Origin: Spizellomyces punctatus DAOM BR117
Lineage: Eukaryota
DNA: 64,000 bases
Reading direction: 5' to 3' (one strand)
Assembly (NCBI GenBank): GCA_000182565.2
Contig: KQ257450.1
Under the pieces are notes generated by a model. It ran no database searches and was not told the origin of the DNA. It saw only the letters and a list, made by a program, of their open reading frames with translations. Both the position numbers and the translations under genes were made by a program. This document shows positions 1,019 through 62,232 of the stretch, in pieces. How positions within the stretch are numbered: the first letter of the stretch is position 1; every line of letters begins with the position of its first letter.

Positions 1019-4000
1019 TCATAGTCCCAGGGTTTGCCTTCGCAACACCTCCTTCCCACAAAGCTCCATCATTTCAATAAGTGTCTCGGCTTTAAACGGT
1101 TTTGAGATGTGTCCATCCATTCCAGCTCGTATACAAAGATCCTTATCTGTATCCCTGGCATTGGCAGTTAAGGCATAAATGGTTGGTTGGTGAATGTCCG
1201 GGTCGCTACGTATGAGACGTGTTGCCTCAACCCCAGACATAGTAGGCATCTGCATGTCCTGATGAGGTGAGCGAAAAGATCGATGAGTCTTGCGATTTAC
1301 ATGGAGGTCCAGATGTTCGACAATATACCATGAGAATGAGATCGTATTTCTTCTTTTTGCATGCGTCGACTGCTTCCTGACCATTGCCTGCTATGTCAGC
1401 TGTGTAGCCTAACCTCTGAAATAACCAGAACATCATTCAATAGTCGGTCATACAGATACTCATTCACCTTGATCTACCTGTAACATCCGTAGACATAGCT
1501 TTTGATTAACAGGATTGTCTTCCGCCATTAATATACTCATCGGAAACTTCTCGGCCAATCTCGCCGCCTCTCGCTGGACTTTGACTTCCTCCTTTGTGAT
1601 ATTCGCGGACTCTTCCGAACTACAAACTCTCATCTCTAGCGAAAAACAAAACGTACTTCCGTGCCCCTCCCGGCTCTCAACAGTCAGTTTGCCATAGTTG
1701 GGATCCATCATTTGAACCAGTCGTTGCGAAATAGCGAGCCCCAGTCCTGTTCCCCCGTACTTTCGTGATGTCGAGTTATCAATCTGCGAAAATGGTTTAA
1801 ATAGGAGGTGTCGACGATCATCCGGGATACCAATTCCAGTGTCTTTAATCCGAAAGTGGACGAGAAAGCGGCTTGAATCCAAATGATCATAGTCAATGTT
1901 GACTACTACTTCGCCGTGGTTTGTGAATTTCACCTATATTGGCTTTAGTACCAAAGCACCCCACGTTCAATCACACAGGATAATTGTCCAAACGTACTGC
2001 GTTCCCAATGATGTTCATGAGCACTTGTCTCAATCGATTTCCATCCCCCCACAAGAACCTCGGAGTTCCTACCCGAACGCGGCTGTATAATCCGATTCCC
2101 TTCTCGCTCGCCCGCAAATTCAAAAGATAAATGGCGTTGTCAATGCATCCCAGTAAATCGAATGGGCGATTTTCAAGGGCCATCTTATTGGCATCGATTT
2201 TGGAGAAGTCTAACTTTTTGTTCCTTAGCATCAGCACCAAAGTCCTTGAACCCGAAGGCTAAAACCCATTATACTCACTACATCATTGACGATGAGCAAG
2301 AGACCATCCGCGCAATCGCGAATCGATTTTAGGAGGTCTTTTTGATCATGCGTAAGGGGAGTCTCCCAGAGAATGCTGCCGAGACCAATAATGCCGTTCA
2401 GCGGCGTCCTAATAGAGGGGTGCACCGAAGTTAGTGTCAAAATAAACAATACACTGACATGGTGATCCGATGGCACATTTACCTAATTTCGTGCGAAATA
2501 TTAGCGAGGAACTGTGTGGACAAGACAAATTGGAAGATTAGCGGTGAAATGTGATCGCAGAGAGAGCTAACCTCACCTCCGCCTTGCTCTGTGCTGCCGC
2601 CGCCGCCTGCTGCAAAGCTGAATCCAGTTGTCGGTTCCTTTCTACCAGTGTCAGTTCAGCGGTTTTGCGTTCGTGTATATTTGTCATTGATCCTATCTGT
2701 AGAGACGCACTGTGAATGGTAAGGTTCCATCTTGCTTGTCGGAGAAGTGCCTGGGCTTGATTACAGACCAGAGACGTGGGCAAACCATGTTCATCAAACT
2801 TCACCGCCCGTCCCCGACTTAACAACCAACGATAGTCGCCACTTTTGCACTGCACTCGCATCTCTAGTCTAACCTTTTCTAAACGACCGTCAAAAACTTC
2901 TCGCAAGGTTTCTTCTGCTAGTGACACATCTAAAATGACGGATGTTGTCGAATTTCAGTACAATACTGCCGAGAACCATACTCTTAATAACAGACCGTCT
3001 GGATGCAACAGCTTCATGAATTCGGGCACTGTCCCCACAAGACGGCAAAATTCTTCCTTTGTATATCCCAGTTGCTCGTACATACGCAGCGAAAGGGGGT
3101 TGATGATCTGGTTTGAGTAAATTTCATAGATACCTAAAATGCGAGTGCCATTGAAGCGAGTATTGAATATTAATGAACGAATGAAATAACACAAACCATC
3201 GTCAGTGGTGCTCAAGATTAACCCTGTTCGCGCTTCACTTGCTTTGAGAGAATCAATGTATTCCCGTTCTTCGGAAATGTCTCTACATACTGGACAAATA
3301 TCACGGAATCACGATGTCAGATCAGACACACAAGAGCGAAACGGTTTTGTTTCGGCAGCTTACTATACAAATATCTCTCCGTGCCATCCTGATGGCCGAC
3401 ATAACTAGCTGTGAAGACAATATGCCGTATGGACGATCTTGTTCCAGGTTCCGCATTGCTGGTCCAATTACCATCCGCGGTAAGGTGAACCTTTCGACCA
3501 ACCATAAGCTGCCTGAATGTCAGCGATGAATAGGAGATATTTTACCTCGAGATGCATTTCAAATTCCACAGTCTGACCGGTGTCCTTTGATTTCTTGAAA
3601 GCCAAAGCAACCAAATCTGCAATTGTCAACCGTTCACATAAACCGACACTGGGGGAAAGACCTCTGCAACGAGTAAACGCACCGACATCCTCCTGCCTTC
3701 GGTTATAATCTTTCACCATAGACTTTTGAAATATCTCACTTTCATGGGTCGCTCCATCTACATGAAAACCACAGCTCAGTGGCCTGGTGTCGAAGTATCC
3801 TCAGCACGCCCACCTCAAAACCCACAGTGTTTCATGCCCCGCTTATTCAAATGCAGGTGCATCATATCAAAATGGCATCCGCACCCGGGTGACGGTTTAT
3901 GAGGGTACGCCTCGCATTTTACAGTTTCCAGGATGGCGGATATGCCCTATGGGTGTGAAGTCCAGAATGAGCTATAGATCGGTCGCTTTTACCACGATAC

Positions 4001-4296: not shown

Positions 4297-5104
4297 GATA
4301 CGAAGGGAGAAGGAGTGGCTTGGTCTCACTTCAAATTGCTGATGTTATGGACCGGAAAGATGGGCGGAGTAAGGGCTAGATTGGTTACGATGTAGCAGGG
4401 CAGCAGAATGGCATATGGCATATGTGCCACTACATCCAACCTAAACGATGGGCCGAACTTTGGGGCCACTCAGTTATCGGATAATTAATTCCGACCCTCG
4501 TGAAATAGGGTATACCCTTTGAAAATGCTCGTAGGCCATCTCGTAACCTCTAAATATTTAAGAAGCGACAAGGGTTGTAGCCCTCCAATCTAGGTATTAT
4601 TGATGGATCGAAGATATTCCAGTTCAAGGAAAACGGAGTGGGAGAACATACCTGACAATTAAAGGCCAACTTAAATACAAATGGATGCCCTGGATGACGG
4701 AATGGTTGCAAGTCGAACACGTTAACAAGCTAGGCGAGGACTTCTCCTTTCCATCTATGGGTTCAGGGTATGCGTATGCACGGCGCAGCATCCATCTGGA
4801 TGAAAGCAGCATATGATCGTCCGCCGTGAGCAGCTTTTGCTGAGAACTCAGCAATGGAATAGGCAAGACTCTCCTCAAATTGCTTTGCAGCATCCATCAA
4901 CATGGACGCGATTTATTGCGCTGGTGTTCCATCCTGCGCTCCACCCCAGCGACTACTGCCAACTCTATTACCCACAATTTTACAGGTGACATAAACTTCT
5001 ATCCTTTTACTAGACGACCTCTACTGGGCTGACAACCTCCATGCTTCCTTGGTTCAAAATAATAACGATAATTCGAAAGGCTCTGAATAATTAATCACAA
5101 CATC

Positions 5105-7383: not shown

Positions 7384-7483
7384 NNNNNNNNNNNNNNNNN
7401 NNNNNNNNNNNNNNNNNNNNNNNNNNNNNNNNNNNNNNNNNNNNNNNNNNNNNNNNNNNNNNNNNNNNNNNNNNNNNNNNNNN
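7384..7483. other. Assembly gap (N run)
   Basis: 100 N preceded by a poly-C run. Confidence 1.
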
Positions 7484-8389: not shown

Positions 8390-9213
8390 NNNNNNNNNNN
8401 NNNNNNNNNNNNNNNNNNNNNNNNNNNNNNNNNNNNNNNNNNNNNNNNNNNNNNNNNNNNNNNNNNNNNNNNNNNNNNNNNNNNNNNNNNNNNNNNNNNN
8501 NNNNNNNNNNNNNNNNNNNNNNNNNNNNNNNNNNNNNNNNNNNNNNNNNNNNNNNNNNNNNNNNNNNNNNNNNNNNNNNNNNNNNNNNNNNNNNNNNNNN
8601 NNNNNNNNNNNNNNNNNNNNNNNNNNNNNNNNNNNNNNNNNNNNNNNNNNNNNNNNNNNNNNNNNNNNNNNNNNNNNNNNNNNNNNNNNNNNNNNNNNNN
8701 NNNNNNNNNNNNNNNNNNNNNNNNNNNNNNNNNNNNNNNNNNNNNNNNNNNNNNNNNNNNNNNNNNNNNNNNNNNNNNNNNNNNNNNNNNNNNNNNNNNN
8801 NNNNNNNNNNNNNNNNNNNNNNNNNNNNNNNNNNNNNNNNNNNNNNNNNNNNNNNNNNNNNNNNNNNNNNNNNNNNNNNNNNNNNNNNNNNNNNNNNNNN
8901 NNNNNNNNNNNNNNNNNNNNNNNNNNNNNNNNNNNNNNNNNNNNNNNNNNNNNNNNNNNNNNNNNNNNNNNNNNNNNNNNNNNNNNNNNNNNNNNNNNNN
9001 NNNNNNNNNNNNNNNNNNNNNNNNNNNNNNNNNNNNNNNNNNNNNNNNNNNNNNNNNNNNNNNNNNNNNNNNNNNNNNNNNNNNNNNNNNNNNNNNNNNN
9101 NNNNNNNNNNNNNNNNNNNNNNNNNNNNNNNNNNNNNNNNNNNNNNNNNNNNNNNNNNNNNNNNNNNNNNNNNNNNNNNNNNNNNNNNNNNNNNNNNNNN
9201 NNNNNNNNNNNNN
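8390..9213. other. Assembly gap (N run)
   Basis: Run of N followed by a poly-C run. Confidence 1.
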
Positions 9214-26982: not shown

Positions 26983-27630
26983 ATGCCTTCAGGTAACCCT
27001 GCACCTGAACACACACACACAGAACAAAGGAAATGCCGTAACTGACATTGTTACCCAATTAGCACCCGACATTTATGCACAGAAAACAACCGTCGTCGCA
27101 ACAGCGCATGACGTGCAAGCCACCAATGTGATTATCGCCGCAAGTGTAAACGAGGAGCCAAAGACAGTTGTATCGACGGACGCTGCGAATTTATCAGAGA
27201 TTACTATGGTGGGTTGTCTTTTTTATGCGTGTTGTGGAATGGGGAATGTAATGTACATTTTTGGGACTTTTTAGGCGACAATGTTGGGTGCAAGTGCAGG
27301 CTTTGCAACCAAAAAGATGGCAAAAACGGGGGGTTTGGTCATCGGGATTGGGTTTATGGGAATACAAGTACGTACCTTATCACCCTCTTCCCAAACAGAA
27401 ACATATTAAAGCTATTGTTAAAGGCCCTCGTACATGCCGATATCCTCAAAGTCAACTGGCCCCGCGTAGAATCCCTTCTTATCGGTAAAATCGACCAAGA
27501 CGGGGACGGAAAATTCACGCATAAAGATATTCAGATTGGTGCTACGAGGATGTTACGGAATCTTACGACGGATTTACCGTCTAGTGCGGGGTTTGCTGCG
27601 GCTTTTGCGGTTGGGTTTCGGTATGGGTGA
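26983..27630 (+). CDS. FUN14: FUN14-family mitochondrial outer membrane protein; multi-exon
   Basis: LGASAGFATKKMAKTGGLVIGIGFMGIQ|ALVHADILKVNW...LPSSAGFAAAFAVGFRYG. Confidence 0.88.
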
Positions 27631-44100: not shown

Positions 44101-46062
44101 ATTTTTGCGTTCAACGCATGGTCCCAAATACGCCGTATAAATTTAACATTGTAAATATGAGTAAACCAAATAGTCAGTTCAATCAAGGTAGGGATCGACC
44201 AAATCTAGACTATAGTCACTTACACCAACATAAAGAAACTTAACCGTTTGTCTTTCCCAACTTTAGGAATGCAACCTGTCATGTTCTCCCGTGAGGAAGG
44301 TTGCTGGAGACGTGTCGGGGACGCTATCTATTATTACAAGTGAGGAACTCTTCAATTACGCACCCATCACTGACCAGGTTGCTAAACTATTCTTATTCTT
44401 AGAAACCATTATGCATTTCCCACACAATACGAGTCAGAATATACATTCGCTACCCTGACATTCACCATAACGTTCTCATATGCAGGGGACAGCTGTTATT
44501 TTGCATATCACTATCCATACACTTATTCAGACCTTCAGGTAATTAACTTTTTCACTACAAGAGGCATTGTGAAGCGGAGCTGATTTGGTTGTGCGCAGCG
44601 GTCCCTGTTCCATCTTCAGCTCTCCTCGACCTTTGGCGAGCGATGCAGGAGACAAACCTTGTGCAGAACATTGGGTGGGAATGAGTGTCCTCTGCTTACT
44701 GTTACAGATTTTAGCCCTGGTATGTTTTCATTTGGTTGCTTTGGAGCATCATGGGCGTCCCTCATTCATTTTCATGTAGCTTCCACGGCAACAAACCCAA
44801 TATCAGAGCGAGTATATGTTCTCCTCAGTGCACGGGTAAGACGCAATGCGTGTTCGTATACGTCAATTCAACTGTAGTCCAACCTGATCATCTTCAGGTC
44901 CACCCCGGCGAATCCAACTCCTCCCATATAATGCACGGCTTACTAAACTACCTGCTGTCCGATGCGGAAACGGCGATCGACTTGCGAAAACGCTGCGTGT
45001 TCAAGATTGTTCCCATGCTGAATCCAGATGGGGTTGTCAATGGAAGGTAGGCCACAATATATTTTGACCAAAAGAATATGCTGTTTTTGAGATAATGATG
45101 GTATCCTTTTCTTCAATAGTCACCGATGCTCGCTTGCGGGAGTAGATCTGAATCGCCAATGGAAACGTCCAGACCGGAGGAGGGCGCCAACTATCTGGTG
45201 GGTAAAAAGGCTGTGGAAGTTCTTGGTAGATGAAGGAAAGCGGGTTTTGGTAAGTGCAAGCGTTTTCTCGATTCGTCAATCCAAGTTCCAGGATTGGAGG
45301 ACTGGAAGATTGGAAGATTGGAAGAATGGAGTGCACTATGGCCGTCATTCTTATCAAAGCTCTCCTACTCAACAGCTTACGTGCGACTTTCACGGTCACT
45401 CGCGGCGCAAAAATATGTTTATCTTTGGCTGCGAAAATACTCCAGGCAGCGACGTGGAAAATCTGGAAAAGGTACAATAGAGCGTAATCCGAGTCATCTG
45501 TAAATATGCGAGTACGCTTATACCTTTCCCGCGGGCGCCCGCAATAGACCTTCCCAACTCTGCTCTCGACGTTATCACCAACGTTTGATATGTCACTCAC
45601 TCGCTTTGATGTGACACCGTCCAAGGAAACCACAGCTCGAGTGGTTCTGTGGCGCGAAATGGGCATCTTAAACTCGTTCACATTGGAGAGTAGTTATTGC
45701 GGGGGGGATTTCGGCGAGAAAAAGGTAAATCAACAGATCCACTGAGTTACCCCTCAATTTAGCATCACCTTTTCTCATGGTGCTTTTTGCAGGGACTCCA
45801 ATTTCAACCCGCCGATCTGCGTCAAGCCGGAATAGATTTCTGTCGAGCATTACGGGCTTTTCTTGATATTCCTCCTTGGAACTCTAGCTCTCCGTTCCCG
45901 ACCGCAGCGCCTTTGGTACCTTCTGTCCGCTCTGCATCGGCTAGTGTAGTTAAAACTTCTGTCGTTGTAGAGTCTGAAGTAGGGCAGGTGGAAGCTGAGG
46001 TCCACCTAGAGGTTTCCGCGGAGATATCCGTGGGAGAAGAACAAGGAAATACGCTTGCATAA
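41195..46062 (+). CDS. Cytosolic carboxypeptidase (M14, CCP1/AGTPBP1-like tubulin deglutamylase) with N-terminal helical region; many exons
   Basis: [51 protein letters not shown]...[18 protein letters not shown]. Start uncertain (40955 or 41195/41242). Confidence 0.92.
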
Positions 46063-46931: not shown

Positions 46932-47617
46932 AATTTGTTGCGAAGACTTTGGATTATTCGAGCCGACAAACGACGACCCCCACCACCAGAAACCACCTAC
47001 ACAGTCGGAAAACAGCATAATGAGGTCAAGAATTTAGAATGAAATTGGGGGGAAGATGAGGAAAGACGACGGCGGAAATGCCAAGGTGGAAGGCGGCTAA
47101 ATTGGAGGGAAGGAAAGCAACCTGTCGAAAATCCATGCAGCGGGCTCTTTTAAGGTGCCCTCCACAAGTCTCCGAATGCAGTACACATGTGAAAATTGCG
47201 ATACTAGATATTATTTCTTTATCCTCCCCTATCTGATAGATGTCCTTTGGGGGGTTATTTTCCATCACAATCCTTTAAACCTTGCTCTCGTGCTCTCCAC
47301 AAAACTGGCTGCGCACGGGCTTTTCCCCCCTACCCCTCTATGGCCGCGTGCAACTAGGCGTGTGCAGGGCGATAACTCATTCACGTGACTATAAGTTGAT
47401 GAACAGCTCCCCATGCACAGACTACAGCATTAAAGTGCTTTCAACTTTATAAAATGATGTGCAATTCCACGTGCGTAAGATGGGCATGCGATAAACTCAA
47501 AGGCTGGAAGGTTCTCCCGGCAAGAGCTCGAGCATTCCTCCATGGGTTTGACTCCTACATATCCTTGCCCGCGAGCAGCGGTCCACAAGCATGTGCCTTG
47601 GACAAATTTAATTTCCA

Positions 47618-47647
47618 TAGTACGGAGCCGGTGGGTATTGGCACTAG
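47618..47647 (+). repeat. Left terminal inverted repeat (including terminal TA)
   Basis: TAGTACGGAGCCGGTGGGTATTGGCACTAG is the reverse complement of 49825-49854 with one mismatch. Confidence 0.97.
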
Positions 47648-47807
47648 TACATAGATTCCAATCAATTTAATCATAATTTTACTCGATTTAGACTTATGGT
47701 TCAATGCACAAAAGATGCACCACCCATTGAAAAACGGGTCCAATATGTGCGGCATCTATGAGGATTGAGGAATTTTCGCAGTTGCGGCGAGTGAGTTGCC
47801 ACATTTC

Positions 47808-47815
47808 TATATAAA
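47808..47815 (+). promoter_or_regulatory. TATA box of the Fanzor gene
   Basis: TATATAAA ending 66 nt upstream of the ATG, followed by a pyrimidine-rich leader. Confidence 0.6.
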
Positions 47816-47881
47816 CCCCTCCACTATCGTTCTCTCCCTGCCCATTTTCCCAGGCTTTCATCTTTTCCCACAGATATCATC

Positions 47882-49765
47882 ATGCCACCAAAGAAGCAAA
47901 GGCTCGAAAAACTCGACAAACCCACCTTAGTGACCTTACACACCTGCAACAAGACGTCCTTTGCAAAAGCTTTCCTGCCAAACGAGATCTACCACCAACG
48001 GCTTCTAGATTACATCGCCATCATTCATGAACTTGCTGACCACGCTTCCCACGCTCTCAAATTCTACATCCTATCTGCACCATCCTTTCCCATGGTAGAT
48101 CAAGATACAATCGAAGCGATTCTCTATCTTCTCAACAAGGGGGAGGCTTGGCATCCAAGAAAGGAAGCAAAGAAGGCATGGCGGGATTGTTTGCTGCCAT
48201 ATGTTCAACGGTACTGCCAAATCGTCGGCTTTGTTCACCCCAATCTACGAGGCGAGCAGCAATCAGTCAATTACCTGACAGCGAGTATGATGACGAACCT
48301 GAAAGTCAACATTCAAGAACATTTCATGACGATGCTGCTCCGCTATATCAATCTACGGCTCGACGTGAGGGGACGGAAAGGGCCTCCAAAGAGTGAAGCA
48401 CGGAAAGCTTTCTTTGCTCGGCTACGCTACTTGAAGTCAATTTTCCTTTTCGATATCGTGCCCGAATTGCTGGATGACTTGACTGCTGAAGAGAGTGAAC
48501 TTCTAGAAGAGATTTGGTCACTCGATCGGCCTTTTCTTGTTGACAATCCACTCGCCTACGCAGTTGTCGTCAATCCAATGTCCTTTTTCCCTGCGTACTG
48601 TCGGTTGTCAAGCCTATATGAAAAGCATGGATTTCGACAGTTCAGCGCGATACCTCTGCGCCGCTCTCTCATCCAAAGCCATGTGCGGATCGACACCATC
48701 ATTCTCTACCAGCATATCCTTTGCATCGCACGAAGAGAAGCGGAAACTGTTGAAAAGGTCGATTTATGGTTGCGCGTCTGTAATCTGCGGAACAAGGCTT
48801 TTAGATCTCGTCGTGGAATGTGTTTTGAAGGCTCGATCACGACGGACGGTACCTCGGTGTCAGTTTACTTGAAACATCCTGAAGCCGACAAGTATGGAAA
48901 GCGTGGCGGTGGGAAAAAGTCGGCAAAGACCTTAGAAGCTGAGGTGAAGGCAGTATATGTGGAGAACAACTTGCCTGCTTGTCGAGCAGCAGAGAACTTT
49001 GTCGTTATCGACCCAAACAAGCGCGATCTTCTCTACTGCCAAGACAACAAGGGCACCATCTTCCGTTACACCGCCAATCAACGCTGCAAGGAGACTGGAA
49101 GCCGTCGATTTGCAAAAGAGCGGCAGCGGATGAAAGCTGGCGGTATTGACCTCATAGAATCACGTATCCCAAGCCACAAGACGATGAACCTCATGGACTT
49201 TACTCGCTACCTTCTTGTTCGCCGCGCAGATTCGGATCGTCGCAAGGAATTCTACTCCCACCCTGCCCACACGCGATGGAAATGGCACGCATTCATAAAC
49301 CGTCAGAAGAGCGAATCAGACCTCATATCCAACATGCACAACAAGTTTGGGAACTTTACCATTGTGATGGGAGATTGGAGCGATGCCGGTCGAACTGCGA
49401 GATTTCAGACCTCATCAAAGACGAAAGGCTGGCGCACCCTCTTTAAGCGCAACAGGATCAACTGCTTCCTTCTCGACGAGTACAAGACCTCATCTGTTTG
49501 CCCTTGCTGTTCCTCTGACGTTGAAAAAGGCTTCCAAACACGACCTCATTCAAGACCTTATCGACGACGAGAAGGCAAGATTGAAAAAGTCCACGGATTG
49601 CTGGGTTGTACCAACCCTAACTGTTTGCAGCAAGCCTGGACATCGGGAATGCGCTACTGGAATCGAGATACGCTGTCAACCTGCAACATGCTGATGATCG
49701 TGCAATCAATGTTGGATGGACATGGTAGACCAGAGGTGTTCAGCAGGAGCCGTAGCGTAGCGTAG
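47882..49765 (+). CDS. Fz1: Fanzor1 RNA-guided DNA endonuclease (eukaryotic TnpB/Cas12 homolog), 627 aa
   Basis: N-terminal NLS-like PPKKQR; ITTDGTSVSV; RuvC-I VVIDPNKRD (D377); VMGDWS; RuvC-II LLDEYKTS (E533); Zn-finger CPCC...CTNPNC; RuvC-III WNRD (D596). From memory, closely resembles S. punctatus SpuFz1. Confidence 0.96.
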   Translation: MPPKKQRLEKLDKPTLVTLHTCNKTSFAKAFLPNEIYHQRLLDYIAIIHELADHASHALKFYILSAPSFPMVDQDTIEAILYLLNKGEAWHPRKEAKKAWRDCLLPYVQRYCQIVGFVHPNLRGEQQSVNYLTASMMTNLKVNIQEHFMTMLLRYINLRLDVRGRKGPPKSEARKAFFARLRYLKSIFLFDIVPELLDDLTAEESELLEEIWSLDRPFLVDNPLAYAVVVNPMSFFPAYCRLSSLYEKHGFRQFSAIPLRRSLIQSHVRIDTIILYQHILCIARREAETVEKVDLWLRVCNLRNKAFRSRRGMCFEGSITTDGTSVSVYLKHPEADKYGKRGGGKKSAKTLEAEVKAVYVENNLPACRAAENFVVIDPNKRDLLYCQDNKGTIFRYTANQRCKETGSRRFAKERQRMKAGGIDLIESRIPSHKTMNLMDFTRYLLVRRADSDRRKEFYSHPAHTRWKWHAFINRQKSESDLISNMHNKFGNFTIVMGDWSDAGRTARFQTSSKTKGWRTLFKRNRINCFLLDEYKTSSVCPCCSSDVEKGFQTRPHSRPYRRREGKIEKVHGLLGCTNPNCLQQAWTSGMRYWNRDTLSTCNMLMIVQSMLDGHGRPEVFSRSRSVA

Positions 49766-49779
49766 ATTGGTTAGATTAG

Positions 49780-49870
49780 GTTTTCCGAACCGGTTGTCGC
49801 GCGGTTCAATCCCTGGTGCGGGTGCTAGTGCCAATACCCACCGGCTCCGCACTATCAATATAAAGGTAAT
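49780..49870 (+). ncRNA. omegaRNA: ~75-nt scaffold (49780-49854) plus ~15-nt guide from the flank
   Basis: GTTTTCCGAACCGGTTGTCGCGCGGTTCAATCCCTGGTGCGGGTGCTAGTGCCAATACCCACCGGCTCCGCACTA lies just after the stop codon, ends at the element boundary and has self-complementary stems. It matches the recalled SpuFz1 omegaRNA layout. Confidence 0.88.
49825..49854 (+). repeat. Right terminal inverted repeat (including terminal TA)
   Basis: CTAGTGCCAATACCCACCGGCTCCGCACTA. Confidence 0.97.
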
Positions 49871-49895
49871 TAGAATTTACTATCTACAGAAATAT

Positions 49896-51421
49896 CTACT
49901 TTTTTTCATGGTCCCCCTCGAGGATCCGGCGTTTTCTACGGGGATACCGATCAAGTACGGTAACGCCCGCTGTCTTTTTTGGGCGCCTCGGCTGTGGGGC
50001 CTCCTCACGTTTACCCTCTAGCACAATATTCGACTTGTTCTCTACAGATGATACCAATCGATGTTCAAATTGGCGCAGGTCGGCGGTAAATAGCACCTGC
50101 GTGCGCTGATGAGTACATGACAGCAAAGGTTCCATTTTCAAAGTCACTTACTGAATGCGCCCATCCAGCGTGTGTCCCAAAGATCGTTCGAAAGCGATCC
50201 CCGATCGCTAAGTAGTTCTTTTGCGTGAGAGTTTTTGAAGCGAGGCCGGACAACTTGTAGTCTCTTTTCGCAATCTAGTGCGCAACTGTAATGTTTAGCT
50301 TCTGTCTCAAACTAATATCGACCCAAGATCACATTGCATACCTGCCATACATGCGTATCAACGGGTATCGCTCCTGGCTTATCCATGCTATACGTATCTA
50401 TCAACAAATGCAGACTACGAAACAAATATTCAAACCTCCGCATATACCTCATTAAACAGACACAGTCTGCAACCTTTGGTCCCACTAAATAAAATTTCAA
50501 ATTCAAGAATAGTTATTGTCCATCATCTACCTGTAAGCTCGACTCGACTACTGCTTAGCTTACCACCAGCCAGCTTCAACAACTCATCCCTGCATTCTTC
50601 ATATGGCAAATTTCTCAATCCTCTTAACCAGGTTTCGTCATGGTGCTCCATGATGTACCTCGCCGTTTGCGATATGTATTTTGCACGGTAGCCGAAACCA
50701 AGCTGCCGCAACTCGTTTTCCACATTTTCTTGTGCAAGACGCGCCACCGTCGGAAAGCTATAGAAGGGCTTCGATATCTCATCAACAGTACCGATCTCGG
50801 TTCCATAATGTTGACATAGTTTGCTAACCTAAAGATGGCACATAAATGACGGGAAGCTTTATGAAAGGGAAAACTGGCTATTGTAATACCATTGTAGTGA
50901 TTCGCTGAATGTTGTTGTTTGAGGTACAAATGAACGTGAACAAATTTTCTACCGGATCTTGCCTTCAAGCGAAAGCATGTCAAAATATATATATATATTT
51001 GTGGCGAGAATCGGATGTCGAGGTCTGCATACCTTAATATCCGGATGCCCATAAACCGTCCCGCCTTTTTCTCAAAGTTGGCATCCGTCCGCCATTGTTT
51101 ATACAGTTCCCCAAGATCTACATCAAGCTGAAAATAGTCTCTCAATAACTCCGCAACATCGCCGACATTATCGCCCGGTGTGCGATACAATATGTCGTCA
51201 TCTACCTTGTCTCACTGGTCAATACATGCAGAAACTGCCTGCCTATTTCTCGAAACGACAATATGCTCACCAGTCTGACGCAACGTTATTATGCGCCCCG
51301 ACAATACACTCGTCCACTGATTATCTCCTGTGTTCACCCATCGGAAGCTTTGCCCACAGTTGAGGGTCGTGTCAAGACGGAGCTCTTCTGGTTTTACAGA
51401 AAGGCAATGCCAGGTGGTCAT
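49896..51421 (-). CDS. OGG1: 8-oxoguanine DNA glycosylase/AP lyase; multi-exon
   Basis: [37 protein letters not shown], Hh[50 protein letters not shown]. Confidence 0.96.
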
Positions 51422-51898
51422 GGGGCGTACCGACAGACTGCGAGCAAGCCACGGCTTCAGACAATAAAGTGTAGGGCGAAAATGAGCCACGGTAGGAAGT
51501 CACACTGATACAATCCTGAACGAAAATGGTGGATCGCTGGAAGTCATCGCTTGAAGCCCTGCATCTGTTGGTAGCACGTGATGCTTCAATTTATCTTTTT
51601 CCGGTTAAATTGCGTTCGGACCTCCTCCGACCACCGATTTTCCCAAGCTCTCAACGCAGCGACCACGACGGGCCGAGACAACGAGAAAGGAAGGAAAAGC
51701 AGCACTGGATCGAGATAGATAGCCAAATCTCTGGTGCATGCGATTTTTAGAATCTTCCAAAGGGTACGTGTGTTCTGAATGACACGGTCATGTTCAACAT
51801 AAAACTGAGGAACTTTTTTCGATATCGGGCTTTTGGCTGGAACAGGCTTTTGGTACCCTTTCTTGAGCCTTTTCGTTCGCCAATAGTCTGACCTGACC

Positions 51899-60311: not shown

Positions 60312-62232
60312 ATGTCATTCACCCCCGTTGCATTCCCACCAGAGATTGACACTATCCTCCGAGCGAATTACTCTGATGCAACATGGATAGCAATCTGCAA
60401 AGCATTAGCTGTACCACCCCGCACTACTTTTTGTCGCGTTAATACGCTACGTTGCACCAGAGAGCAGGCTAGAGAACAACTGCAGGACTTTGTTGACATG
60501 GTACGAAATTACAGAAATTACTGCTGATTCACATATATCCTTCTCTGTTTCTAAAAATCTTCATTTTTTGCCAATTCCAAAAGCAATGTAAGCAGAAAAA
60601 CTGGCCGCAATGGATTGTGTATGAGCACCCTGTTGTGCCTGATGTCCTATATATGGACGTGCAAGGACCGCTTCACGTGGATCCTGTGCAAAAAGGTGAG
60701 ACTGATACTCACCGTCGCCTTCTTAATGAGTACTTACTTGCTTGCAATAGAGGTAATCATAGATACGATGTGTGGTAACGCTGTTTTGCGCGGTGCGGAT
60801 ATTTTTGCGGTAAGTCGAATCTTCATCTTATGGAGACCGGAAGTTGAGCATCTATGCCATTTCTTCAGACGGGTGTTCTAGCGGCCGAATCTGCCAGTAA
60901 GCACCACCTCTTGGGCCATGAATGCTACGGGATCGCTGTGATCTGAACTACCAATGGTTTTCGATAGCGAAGCCGGGAGATAAAGTGGCGGTATATGTCG
61001 ATCTTGATGGGGCATGCTTGCGTGGCCAATCGAAGAAGTACACGGGAAGGAAGGCTTTTGTCGGAAATGGCATTGCCATGATGGTATGTGCACAGTAATG
61101 CAATGCGATGCTGACACAATGTTAACTTGGATTCCAATTCCAAGGGCCGAGAAACCCTTTACACATGCTCTGCAAAGCAACTGCGAGGAAAAGGTGTTGG
61201 CGTACAAATGGTGGAGCCAATATATAAGTCGCCATCACTGGGAGATATGTTTGCGAAAGGGGTCATTCTGCAAAATCTACCAAGTGTGCTTGTTGGACAC
61301 GTTTTGGCACCACGGCCTGGAGAGTTGGTGTTGGATATGTGTGCAGGTAGGCCCCGTCACTTATGCGACGCTAGGAATACACGTAACATGGGACGTCTTT
61401 GGCAGCACCGGGGGGCAAAACGACACATTTAGCTGCGCTTATGCGGGATCAAGTGAGTGGTTTATTTAAATCCACATTTTATCACCATTACCAATTATAG
61501 GAGATTAGGGAACAATCATTGCGTTGGACCGTTCGCATCAGAAGGTAGACCGCTTGGTAAATTACATCCGTGAGCAAGAACTGGTCTCGGTAAAGGCATA
61601 TTGTTGTGACGCCACAAGCTGCGTCATGTCGGAACAAGAGACCAAGGAATTTCTAGCTACTCCCGTTTGGTGGTCACCAGGAAGCAAAATTCAGGCTCTT
61701 CCGCGCGAATGTTTTGATCGAGTACTTTTGGACGGGCCATGTTCTGCCATGGGTACGTACATCGCCACATCTCATAGTCTATAGTTTCAAATAGCCCTTT
61801 AACCTCCTTCGCATGATGTGCCTCGATCCAAAAGGTCAGCGACCAAACTTCAAGCCAGATATAACTGTCGGCGTTCTTCATCATTATCCAGCCTATCAGC
61901 GCTCCCTTCTGCACGCCGCTCATAAGCTCCTTCGTCCAGGAGGTGTTCTCGTTTACAGTACTTGTACAATTAACGCCGCCGAGAACGAGCACAATGTAGC
62001 CTACGCACTTGCCACATTCCCGGACCTGGAGATCATGGCAATACCGCCAGAATTCGAGGGGTTGAGCCAGGCAGGATTGACCGGTGTGGAAGCGCTGACC
62101 GAGGTGGCCAGACAACGATGTTATCGGTTTGAACCAGGTCAGATGTGTGGGGTAGGAGTGGATGGCAAGGTGCTAGAAAGTATTGGGTTCTTTTTTGCAG
62201 CTTTTCGAAAAAAAGAGGCAAACAGCCATTAA
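60312..62232 (+). CDS. NSUN6: NSUN6-like RNA cytosine-C5 methyltransferase with PUA domain; multi-exon
   Basis: PP..T..RVN, CGNAVLRGADIFA (PUA), LQNLPS...LDMCA|APGGKT, FDRVLLDGPCSAMG|QRP, LVYSTCTI...ENE. Confidence 0.9.

Follow-up and report, generated by a model that had tools for sequence, protein, structure and literature searches.

A full-length Spu-1 element of Spizellomyces punctatus very probably combining a Fanzor1 gene with its own omegaRNA gene

The closest described systems are the Spu-1 elements of Spizellomyces punctatus itself, in which Saito et al. (2023, PMC10432273) counted 42 Fanzor loci (19 full-length) and 134 ghost elements. As described there, Spu-1 elements are bounded by 30-nt inverted repeats, the 5' one of which is preceded by a conserved CA, and the associated ncRNAs of 88-90 nt are comprised of a 75-nt scaffold and a 14-15-nt guide, with variable extensions; native ncRNA was detected at only four loci. 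The encoded nuclease, SpuFz1, cuts double-stranded DNA in an RNA-guided manner next to a 5'-CATA motif (the TAM), any mutation of which abolishes cutting, and the parts of that paper drawn upon here report no cleavage of RNA. Its cryo-EM text names the scaffold nucleotides U5, C6, C7, U16-G20, G22, the linker A29-C34, U35 and G37, and further a dispensable segment C40-G70, A72 and A75, with position 76 being the first guide nucleotide. The relevant sections of a 2026 review (PMC13565253) read the 5' TSD as part of the TAM and place the 3' TSD within the scaffold. In TnpB systems, cutting of the empty site is held to restore the element (discussion of PMC10432273; PMC13565253).

Analysis of a 64-kb stretch of S. 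punctatus DNA (the window, by which we mean this entire stretch) indicated with high confidence that positions 47618-49854 represent one full-length Spu-1 element, with a Fanzor1 gene and an omegaRNA gene of its own (Table 1). The locus is another copy of the published S. punctatus Fanzor1 element, and the joint design of scaffold, right end and flank-derived guide is already known from the study of Saito et al. The inverted repeats differ at a single position within the terminal 30 nt (29 of 30 identical), and are identical at 31 of 33 when 47618-47650 is compared with 49822-49854. Two exact copies of their 24-nt core are present in the window, against an expectation of zero (shuffled sequences give none), and blastn and tblastn searches with the element found no second copy of it in these 64 kb. 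A CA lies directly upstream of the left repeat at 47616-47617, so that both hallmarks of Spu-1 ends, the 30-nt repeat and the upstream CA, are present. The CATA thus formed at the left end is the published SpuFz1 TAM, and the occurrence of TA at both element ends fits the TSD placement of the above review, 5' in the TAM and 3' in the scaffold. Behind the right end the base composition shifts sharply, with G+C falling from 0.61 across the 75-nt scaffold to 0.20 in the following 50 nt. An earlier sequence-only reading had placed the 75-nt segment correctly, behind the TAG at 49763-49765 and a 14-nt spacer, and was equally right in regarding its last 30 nt as the TIR and in describing an abrupt transition to AT-rich flank. 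Inside the element, a TATA-like run (tatataaa, 47808-47815) precedes the Fanzor ATG by about 70 nt and may be a promoter belonging to the Fanzor gene itself. Assembly gaps in the window comprise three runs of N (434-910, 7384-7483 and 8390-9213), amounting to 1401 N in total.

Table 1. Features of the Spu-1 element and its junctions (window coordinates)
Feature	Position	Strand	Remarks and basis
TAM-like CATA	47616..47619	+	CA from the flank, TA from the start of the left inverted repeat
Left inverted repeat	47618..47650	+	30-nt core 47618-47647; similarity until 47650
Fanzor1 gene, intact, 627 aa, SpuFz1 paralogue	47882..49765	+	open reading frame, stop TAG 49763-49765
Spacer between stop codon and scaffold, 14 nt	49766..49779	+	sequence; RNA reads from other copies start matching at 49772-49781
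omegaRNA scaffold, 75 nt	49780..49854	+	18/18 published nucleotides; match of covariance model R2
Stem-loop 1 (SL1), nt 8-28, conserved protein-binding hairpin	49787..49807	+	minimum-energy fold; pair probabilities; covariation; cryo-EM contacts
Linker, 6 nt, A29-C34	49808..49813	+	published linker; unpaired in predicted folds
Stem-loop 2 (SL2), nt 35-75, 8-nt loop	49814..49854	+	minimum-energy fold; 8-nt hairpin loop and dispensable C40-G70 of PMC10432273
Right inverted repeat, TA-terminated	49825..49854	+	similarity from 49822; inverted-repeat match, copy boundaries
Predicted guide, 14-15 nt of flank	49855..49869	+	length after PMC10432273

The register of the scaffold could be fixed against the published RNA. 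When numbering starts at 49780, the window agrees with the cryo-EM description of SpuFz1 at each of the 18 scaffold nucleotides specified there, as against only 3-6 in registers shifted by 1-4 nt (-4 to +4); the comparison concerns these 18 named nucleotides and not the full-length RNA. A search of 47000-50500 against Rfam gave no match at E up to 1. An assignment to the TnpB omegaRNAs of IS200/IS605 type was considered and rejected, given this Rfam result, the presence of inverted repeats and the start of the scaffold 14 nt past the stop codon.

The protein encoded by the element is closely related to SpuFz1. Comparison with PDB sequences at E up to 10 returned three sequences, all of them Fanzor1 structures: 8GKH, i.e. 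S. punctatus Fanzor 1 fused to MBP, was matched over query residues 2-623 (E=0, 1222.6 bits), and 9CF0 (6.7e-53) and 9CER (3.9e-07) more weakly. In a search of a large protein collection, 42 proteins among 8000 candidates were recovered at E<=0.001, the top named relatives being other proteins of S. punctatus DAOM BR117 with 79-89% identity; identity to both SPPG_06926 and SPPG_07727 is 84%. To express positions in SpuFz1 numbering we used the 638-aa protein P0003, which carries all 31 residues numbered in the portions of PMC10432273 considered here. The window protein retains 29 of these 31 published functional residues (catalytic, TAM and RNA-contact), including the RuvC triad D383, E541 and D606 along with N385, and all six TAM readers, namely R96, Q129, Q130, N133, R291 and Y345. 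The two differences, R419E at a linker phosphate contact and W570Y at the residue that stacks on U5, both lie at RNA contacts. The gene adjacent to the scaffold encodes a Fanzor1 protein with both the RuvC D-E-D triad and the zinc finger, as in Spu-1 elements. A local Pfam-A scan of the protein recovered no families at E up to 0.1; a precomputed annotation, PF26935, is attached to it and to 40 of the 41 other matches in the large collection. Position 419 is E or Q in six of the eight sequences that were compared.

Evidence on the limits of the repeated unit and on its transcription came from public sequencing runs. None of the 24 listed runs contained at least half of the sampled words and 15 contained some part of them; four were aligned to 49400-50000 at 80% likeness. 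In run X1, consisting of DNA-type contigs, depth reaches 1329 and 1301 across 49820-49861 and falls to 0 across 49862-49924, and in X2, likewise of DNA-type contigs, it drops from 112 to 2.7 across the element end. Three X1 contigs depart from the window sequence at 49854, 49856 and 49860, each continuing into a sequence unrelated to the others, and a single 381-nt X2 contig, which covers 49826-50000 with no differences, represents the window copy's own junction. In the contigs of these two runs conservation among copies stops at the element end, with variable flank beyond, which is where the sequence-only reading had held that it should cease. Read together with the RNA reads described below, multi-copy similarity sets in where the scaffold begins and extends up to the end of the element. 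Run X10 was uninformative, its single contig being less than 90% alike and confined to coding sequence.

The fourth run, X23, is an ordinary paired RNA-seq library and not a small-RNA library, and about 6 in 100 of its reads were read. Depth in the + orientation over five bins spanning 49757-49861 is 263, 1048, 741, 114 and 53, the peak of 1048 lying in the bin 49778-49798, and in this fraction of an ordinary library no + orientation read falls in any bin from 49862 on, i.e. none over the flank that would form the window copy's own guide. Among the matches listed, loose ends accumulate before 49772 (419 reads), 49776 (294) and 49781 (70), behind 49818 at the start of SL2 (238 reads) and behind 49855 (129 reads, with a median of 17 nt and an agreement of 0.48). 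The last set comes from other copies and has mixed tails: transcripts from these copies extend into their own differing flanks, in line with the flank-derived 3' segment that had been anticipated for the RNA. Among the variants listed for X23, 545 of 851 reads have C in place of G at 49780, and 508 of 611 have T in place of C at 49807, the latter converting G8-C28 into a G-U pair; A>T at 49809 and C>T at 49841 are also seen, and none is listed at 49789. Most of the scaffold RNA depth comes from such variant copies, and many reads derive from copies whose SL2 is different, as would fit ghost elements; the abundant variants and the exits at 49818 fit the report in PMC10432273 that ghost omegaRNAs exceed those of gene-bearing loci in abundance. 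The scaffold reads share their orientation with the Fanzor coding reads and are opposite to those from the tail of the neighboring minus-strand gene, strand being judged here by orientation only. Taken together, the 18/18 register match, the ending of copies at 49854-49860, the heterogeneous RNA tails and the published description support the proposal that one sequence serves both as the right transposon end and as the 3' half of the omegaRNA scaffold, with the adjoining flank as the guide. This had been put forward from the raw sequence and is sustained here, having already been published for this organism.

We considered whether the window copy might nevertheless be a silent relic, with an intact-looking sequence but producing neither omegaRNA nor active RNP. 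The lack of + orientation reads beyond 49861 in X23 would be consistent with this, as would the detection of native ncRNA at only four loci in the published survey and the substitutions R419E and W570Y at RNA-contact positions. However, the reading frame is open over 627 aa with its catalytic and TAM-reading residues kept, the named scaffold nucleotides agree throughout, and the inverted repeats have remained nearly identical. Moreover, X23, read to about 6%, is a library unsuited to RNAs of 90 nt. We accordingly regard a relic as rather unlikely, and infer that the window copy is an expressed and active element.

To place the scaffold among its relatives, a metagenome scan based on an alignment of 16 proteins yielded 205 pattern matches, of which 88 were confirmed and 80 kept, corresponding to 79 loci (numbered with the prefix L). 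A covariance model built from the window alone (R1) detected only L007 among these loci under default filters; with filters off it located sites in L007, L009 and L005, in each case at the 3' end of Fanzor, and also matched L002 at 4640-4698. Further filters-off matches were judged spurious by their place or strand (window 61981-62055, 45985-46041 and 27257-27310; L019 40-121; L002 6435-6472). A second model, R2, was made from L007, L009 and L005 only, and recovers exactly 49780-49854 as its sole match in the window (31.7 bits, E 9.6e-5), while adding L023, L008 (= L057), L017, L036 and L040. All ten R2 matches lie on the Fanzor strand, and eight of them begin no more than about 50 nt from the stop codon or from where the protein match ends; those in L036 and L040 begin about 260-290 nt downstream of the protein-match end.

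Across nine distinct Fanzor-linked rows aligned to the model, 92.0% of the cells in predicted pairs are indeed paired, against 65.5% in shuffled alignments (0 of 500 reach the observed value) and 25.7-52.9% in slid controls, figures to be read in light of an alignment fitted to the model, of R2 seeds picked by R1 and of five rows that are weak matches (E 0.04-1.7). Changes on both sides of a pair are seen in 13 of 15 pairs overall and in six of eight in SL1 alone, where 90.1% of the cells are paired; at the base of the SL2 stem they affect all seven pairs, again in an alignment fitted to the model. MAFFT alignments of the scaffold were set aside, as they misaligned the hairpin strands, and the covariance-model alignments were counted instead. 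What this adds to the published picture is small, namely that SL1 and its UCC leader are recognizable and covary in uncultured metagenome relatives, with SL2 and the ends varying. The constancy of SL1 and variability of SL2 in these relatives agree with what the relevant part of a study of other Fanzor1 RNAs (Xu et al. 2024, PMC11423790) describes.

These observations bear on a further alternative, that the conserved 75 nt are an end bound by a transposase and nothing else, the RNA being incidental read-through of the Fanzor mRNA. Such an explanation would accommodate the fact that 30 of the 75 nt belong to the inverted repeat, and that no Rfam family matches; but SL1 and the linker lie outside the repeat and are yet the most conserved parts, covarying in relatives with different ends, and the pull-down, structure and cleavage data in the sections of PMC10432273 used here show that the RNA is bound and guides cuts. 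It is thus very improbable, and the dual role of the segment as element end and omegaRNA scaffold is retained in what follows.

Several of the metagenomic loci are of note in their own right. In L002 and L003 there is an SL1-like hairpin 13 nt past the stop codon; inverted repeats and SL2 could not be defined in these two loci (fold z -0.13), and neither R1 nor R2 aligned the hairpin site. L009 contains, at 2467-3037, an internally deleted Fanzor element in which the last ~150 aa of the gene are left; it has inverted repeats at 2469-2494 and 3010-3035, CA plus TAG at its left end, and a two-hairpin scaffold (fold z -4.41) whose final seven letters are those of the window scaffold. It represents a non-autonomous derivative in another, uncultured organism. 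SL1 shares sequence with the end of the Fanzor ORF (final codons or stop codon) in L005 (3190-3242), L007 (2255-2308), L008 (4348-4449) and L017 (3777-3843), and in the window and L002 it lies downstream of the stop codon. Within the clade, where the scaffold begins with respect to the end of the ORF is therefore not constant.

The minimum-energy fold predicted for the 75-mer (-28.9 kcal/mol) is comprised of SL1, the 6-nt linker and SL2 with its 8-nt loop, the SL2 loop and 3' strand falling within the right inverted repeat. In the ensemble the SL1 pairs have probabilities of 0.99-1.0. The stability of the fold is modest, with a z-score of -2.19 (6 of 200 shuffled sequences are equally good), or -1.66 when 20 nt of flank are added (95 nt). 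On this prediction the scaffold consists of two local hairpins, SL1 and SL2, as in the cryo-EM text. The sequence-only reading had instead proposed two other helices. The first, between GAACCGGT (49787-49794) and ACCGGCTC (49840-49847), stands as a stretch of complementarity with one A-C mismatch, but fails as a helix of the scaffold; when the 75-mer is shuffled, 43% of 500 randomized sequences contain a helix of 8 nt having no more than one mismatch. The second, between GGTGCGGGTG (49815-49824) and TACCCACC (49835-49842), requires a 2-nt bulge. As both make use of ACC at 49840-49842 (nt 61-63), they could not form in full together, and every pair of either has a probability near 0 in the ensemble; forcing one or the other gives -18.2 or -18.3 against -28.9 kcal/mol, a cost of about 10.6 kcal/mol.

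The mismatched A49789 had been taken for a copy-specific mutation that might affect activity and be corrected by restoring G. In the two-hairpin fold this base, nt 10, pairs with U26 in SL1, and the pair 10-26 covaries among the relatives (AU in four rows, GC in four, UA in one, unpaired in none). The same A is found in contigs of other copies, a loose-end consensus of two X1 contigs agreeing with the window along the 5' strand of SL1. Since it pairs with U26 and occurs in other copies, A49789 is neither a stem mismatch nor copy-specific, and the idea of restoring G there is mistaken, the base belonging to a normal covarying pair. Folding and covariation among relatives favor the two hairpins: when positioned by distance from the 3' end, the helix has 39 of 72 cells paired in nine rows against 64 of 72 for SL1, and 32 of 64 against 56 of 64 once the window row is removed. 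That this helix closes the scaffold and bears a copy-specific defect is accordingly scarcely credible, for in favor of it are seven complementary pairs out of eight, and against it are the energetic cost (10.7 kcal/mol) and the negligible pair probability, the SL1, linker A29-C34 and single SL2 with distal C40-G70 of the cryo-EM text, the poor pairing in relatives, the covarying partner of nt 10 and the shared A of other copies.

With the scaffold thus read as SL1, linker and SL2, a mechanism may be outlined. Transcription or processing would extend 14-15 nt beyond the element end, so that the guide would be whatever flank adjoins the insertion, and SL1 would provide the conserved protein handle of the omegaRNA. 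The resulting RNP would cut DNA bearing CATA and a match to the guide. An empty site, reconstructed as the left-flank CA, one TA and the right flank, would present both the TAM and the guide match and should be cuttable, and an occupied site would present ACTA before the guide match and be spared. A search for guide targets in the window returned the occupied site as the sole match, with two mismatches, both in the motif (ACTA vs CATA); given that ACTA replaces CATA there, the occupied site should be immune. Because the consulted parts of PMC10432273 know of no transposase for Spu-1, the role of cutting the empty site is something that we infer.

Tail to tail with the element lies a minus-strand gene of several exons (50065-51490) for an OGG1-like 8-oxoguanine DNA glycosylase. 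Its product matches OGG_N (E 4e-13) and, weakly and below Pfam's cut-off, HhH-GPD (E 0.0011). X23 reads opposite in orientation to the Fanzor reads are present over 49862-50000 at a depth of 6-19 and run into the element end, and the guide region may overlap the 3' UTR of the OGG1-like gene. If the opposite reads do represent this 3' UTR, the guide, together with any read-through product, would form a perfect antisense match to a host mRNA. It is conceivable, though we consider it highly doubtful, that by such pairing of a putative omegaRNA guide or read-through product with the OGG1-like mRNA a Fanzor insertion affects a DNA-repair gene; if true, this would be an RNA-pairing effect on such a gene beyond the cutting of DNA.

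The value of these results lies mainly in serving as a check, in that a reading of raw sequence recovered the architecture of an RNA-guided nuclease locus, including its 75-nt scaffold and inverted-repeat boundary, which had been published for S. punctatus in 2023 and solved by cryo-EM. Useful corrections to that reading are the two-local-hairpin fold and the recognition of the supposed defect at 49789 as a normal covarying pair.

Among known systems, the published SpuFz1 Spu-1 element (PMC10432273; PDB 8GKH) has, as far as the portions used here describe it, the same layout of CA plus 30-nt inverted repeat, Fz1 ORF, 75-nt scaffold and flank-derived guide, and the fold predicted for the window scaffold has the same SL1, 6-nt linker and SL2 with 8-nt loop; the window copy differs in being a paralogous locus with its own flank as the guide. 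Ghost Spu-1 elements, described in the same source as being of about 550 nt with an omegaRNA and without a Fanzor gene, share SL1 and the inverted-repeat logic with it, but they have a 3-nt bulge and inverted repeats that are different at seven positions, whereas the window copy has the gene and an SL2 with an 8-nt loop. The TnpB omegaRNAs or reRNAs (IS200/IS605 ISDra2, IS607), in the accounts drawn on here, likewise derive a guide RNA from the right end, with a flank-derived guide and a TAM at the left end; in contrast, their scaffolds contain a pseudoknot and partly coincide with the tnpB ORF, while the SpuFz1 RNA is described as being without one (PMC10432273), and the inverted repeats with TA at both ends set the window element apart from IS605 and IS607 (PMC13565253). 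Finally, the omegaRNAs of GtFz1 and PpFz1, as presented in the relevant part of PMC11423790, have in common the SL1 handle and the 3' guide and are variable beyond SL1: that of GtFz1 has extra stem-loops and an overlap with 17 aa of the ORF, that of PpFz1 a 4-bp SL2, and that of SpuFz1 only SL1 and one SL2, the part beyond SL1 being probably unconstrained.
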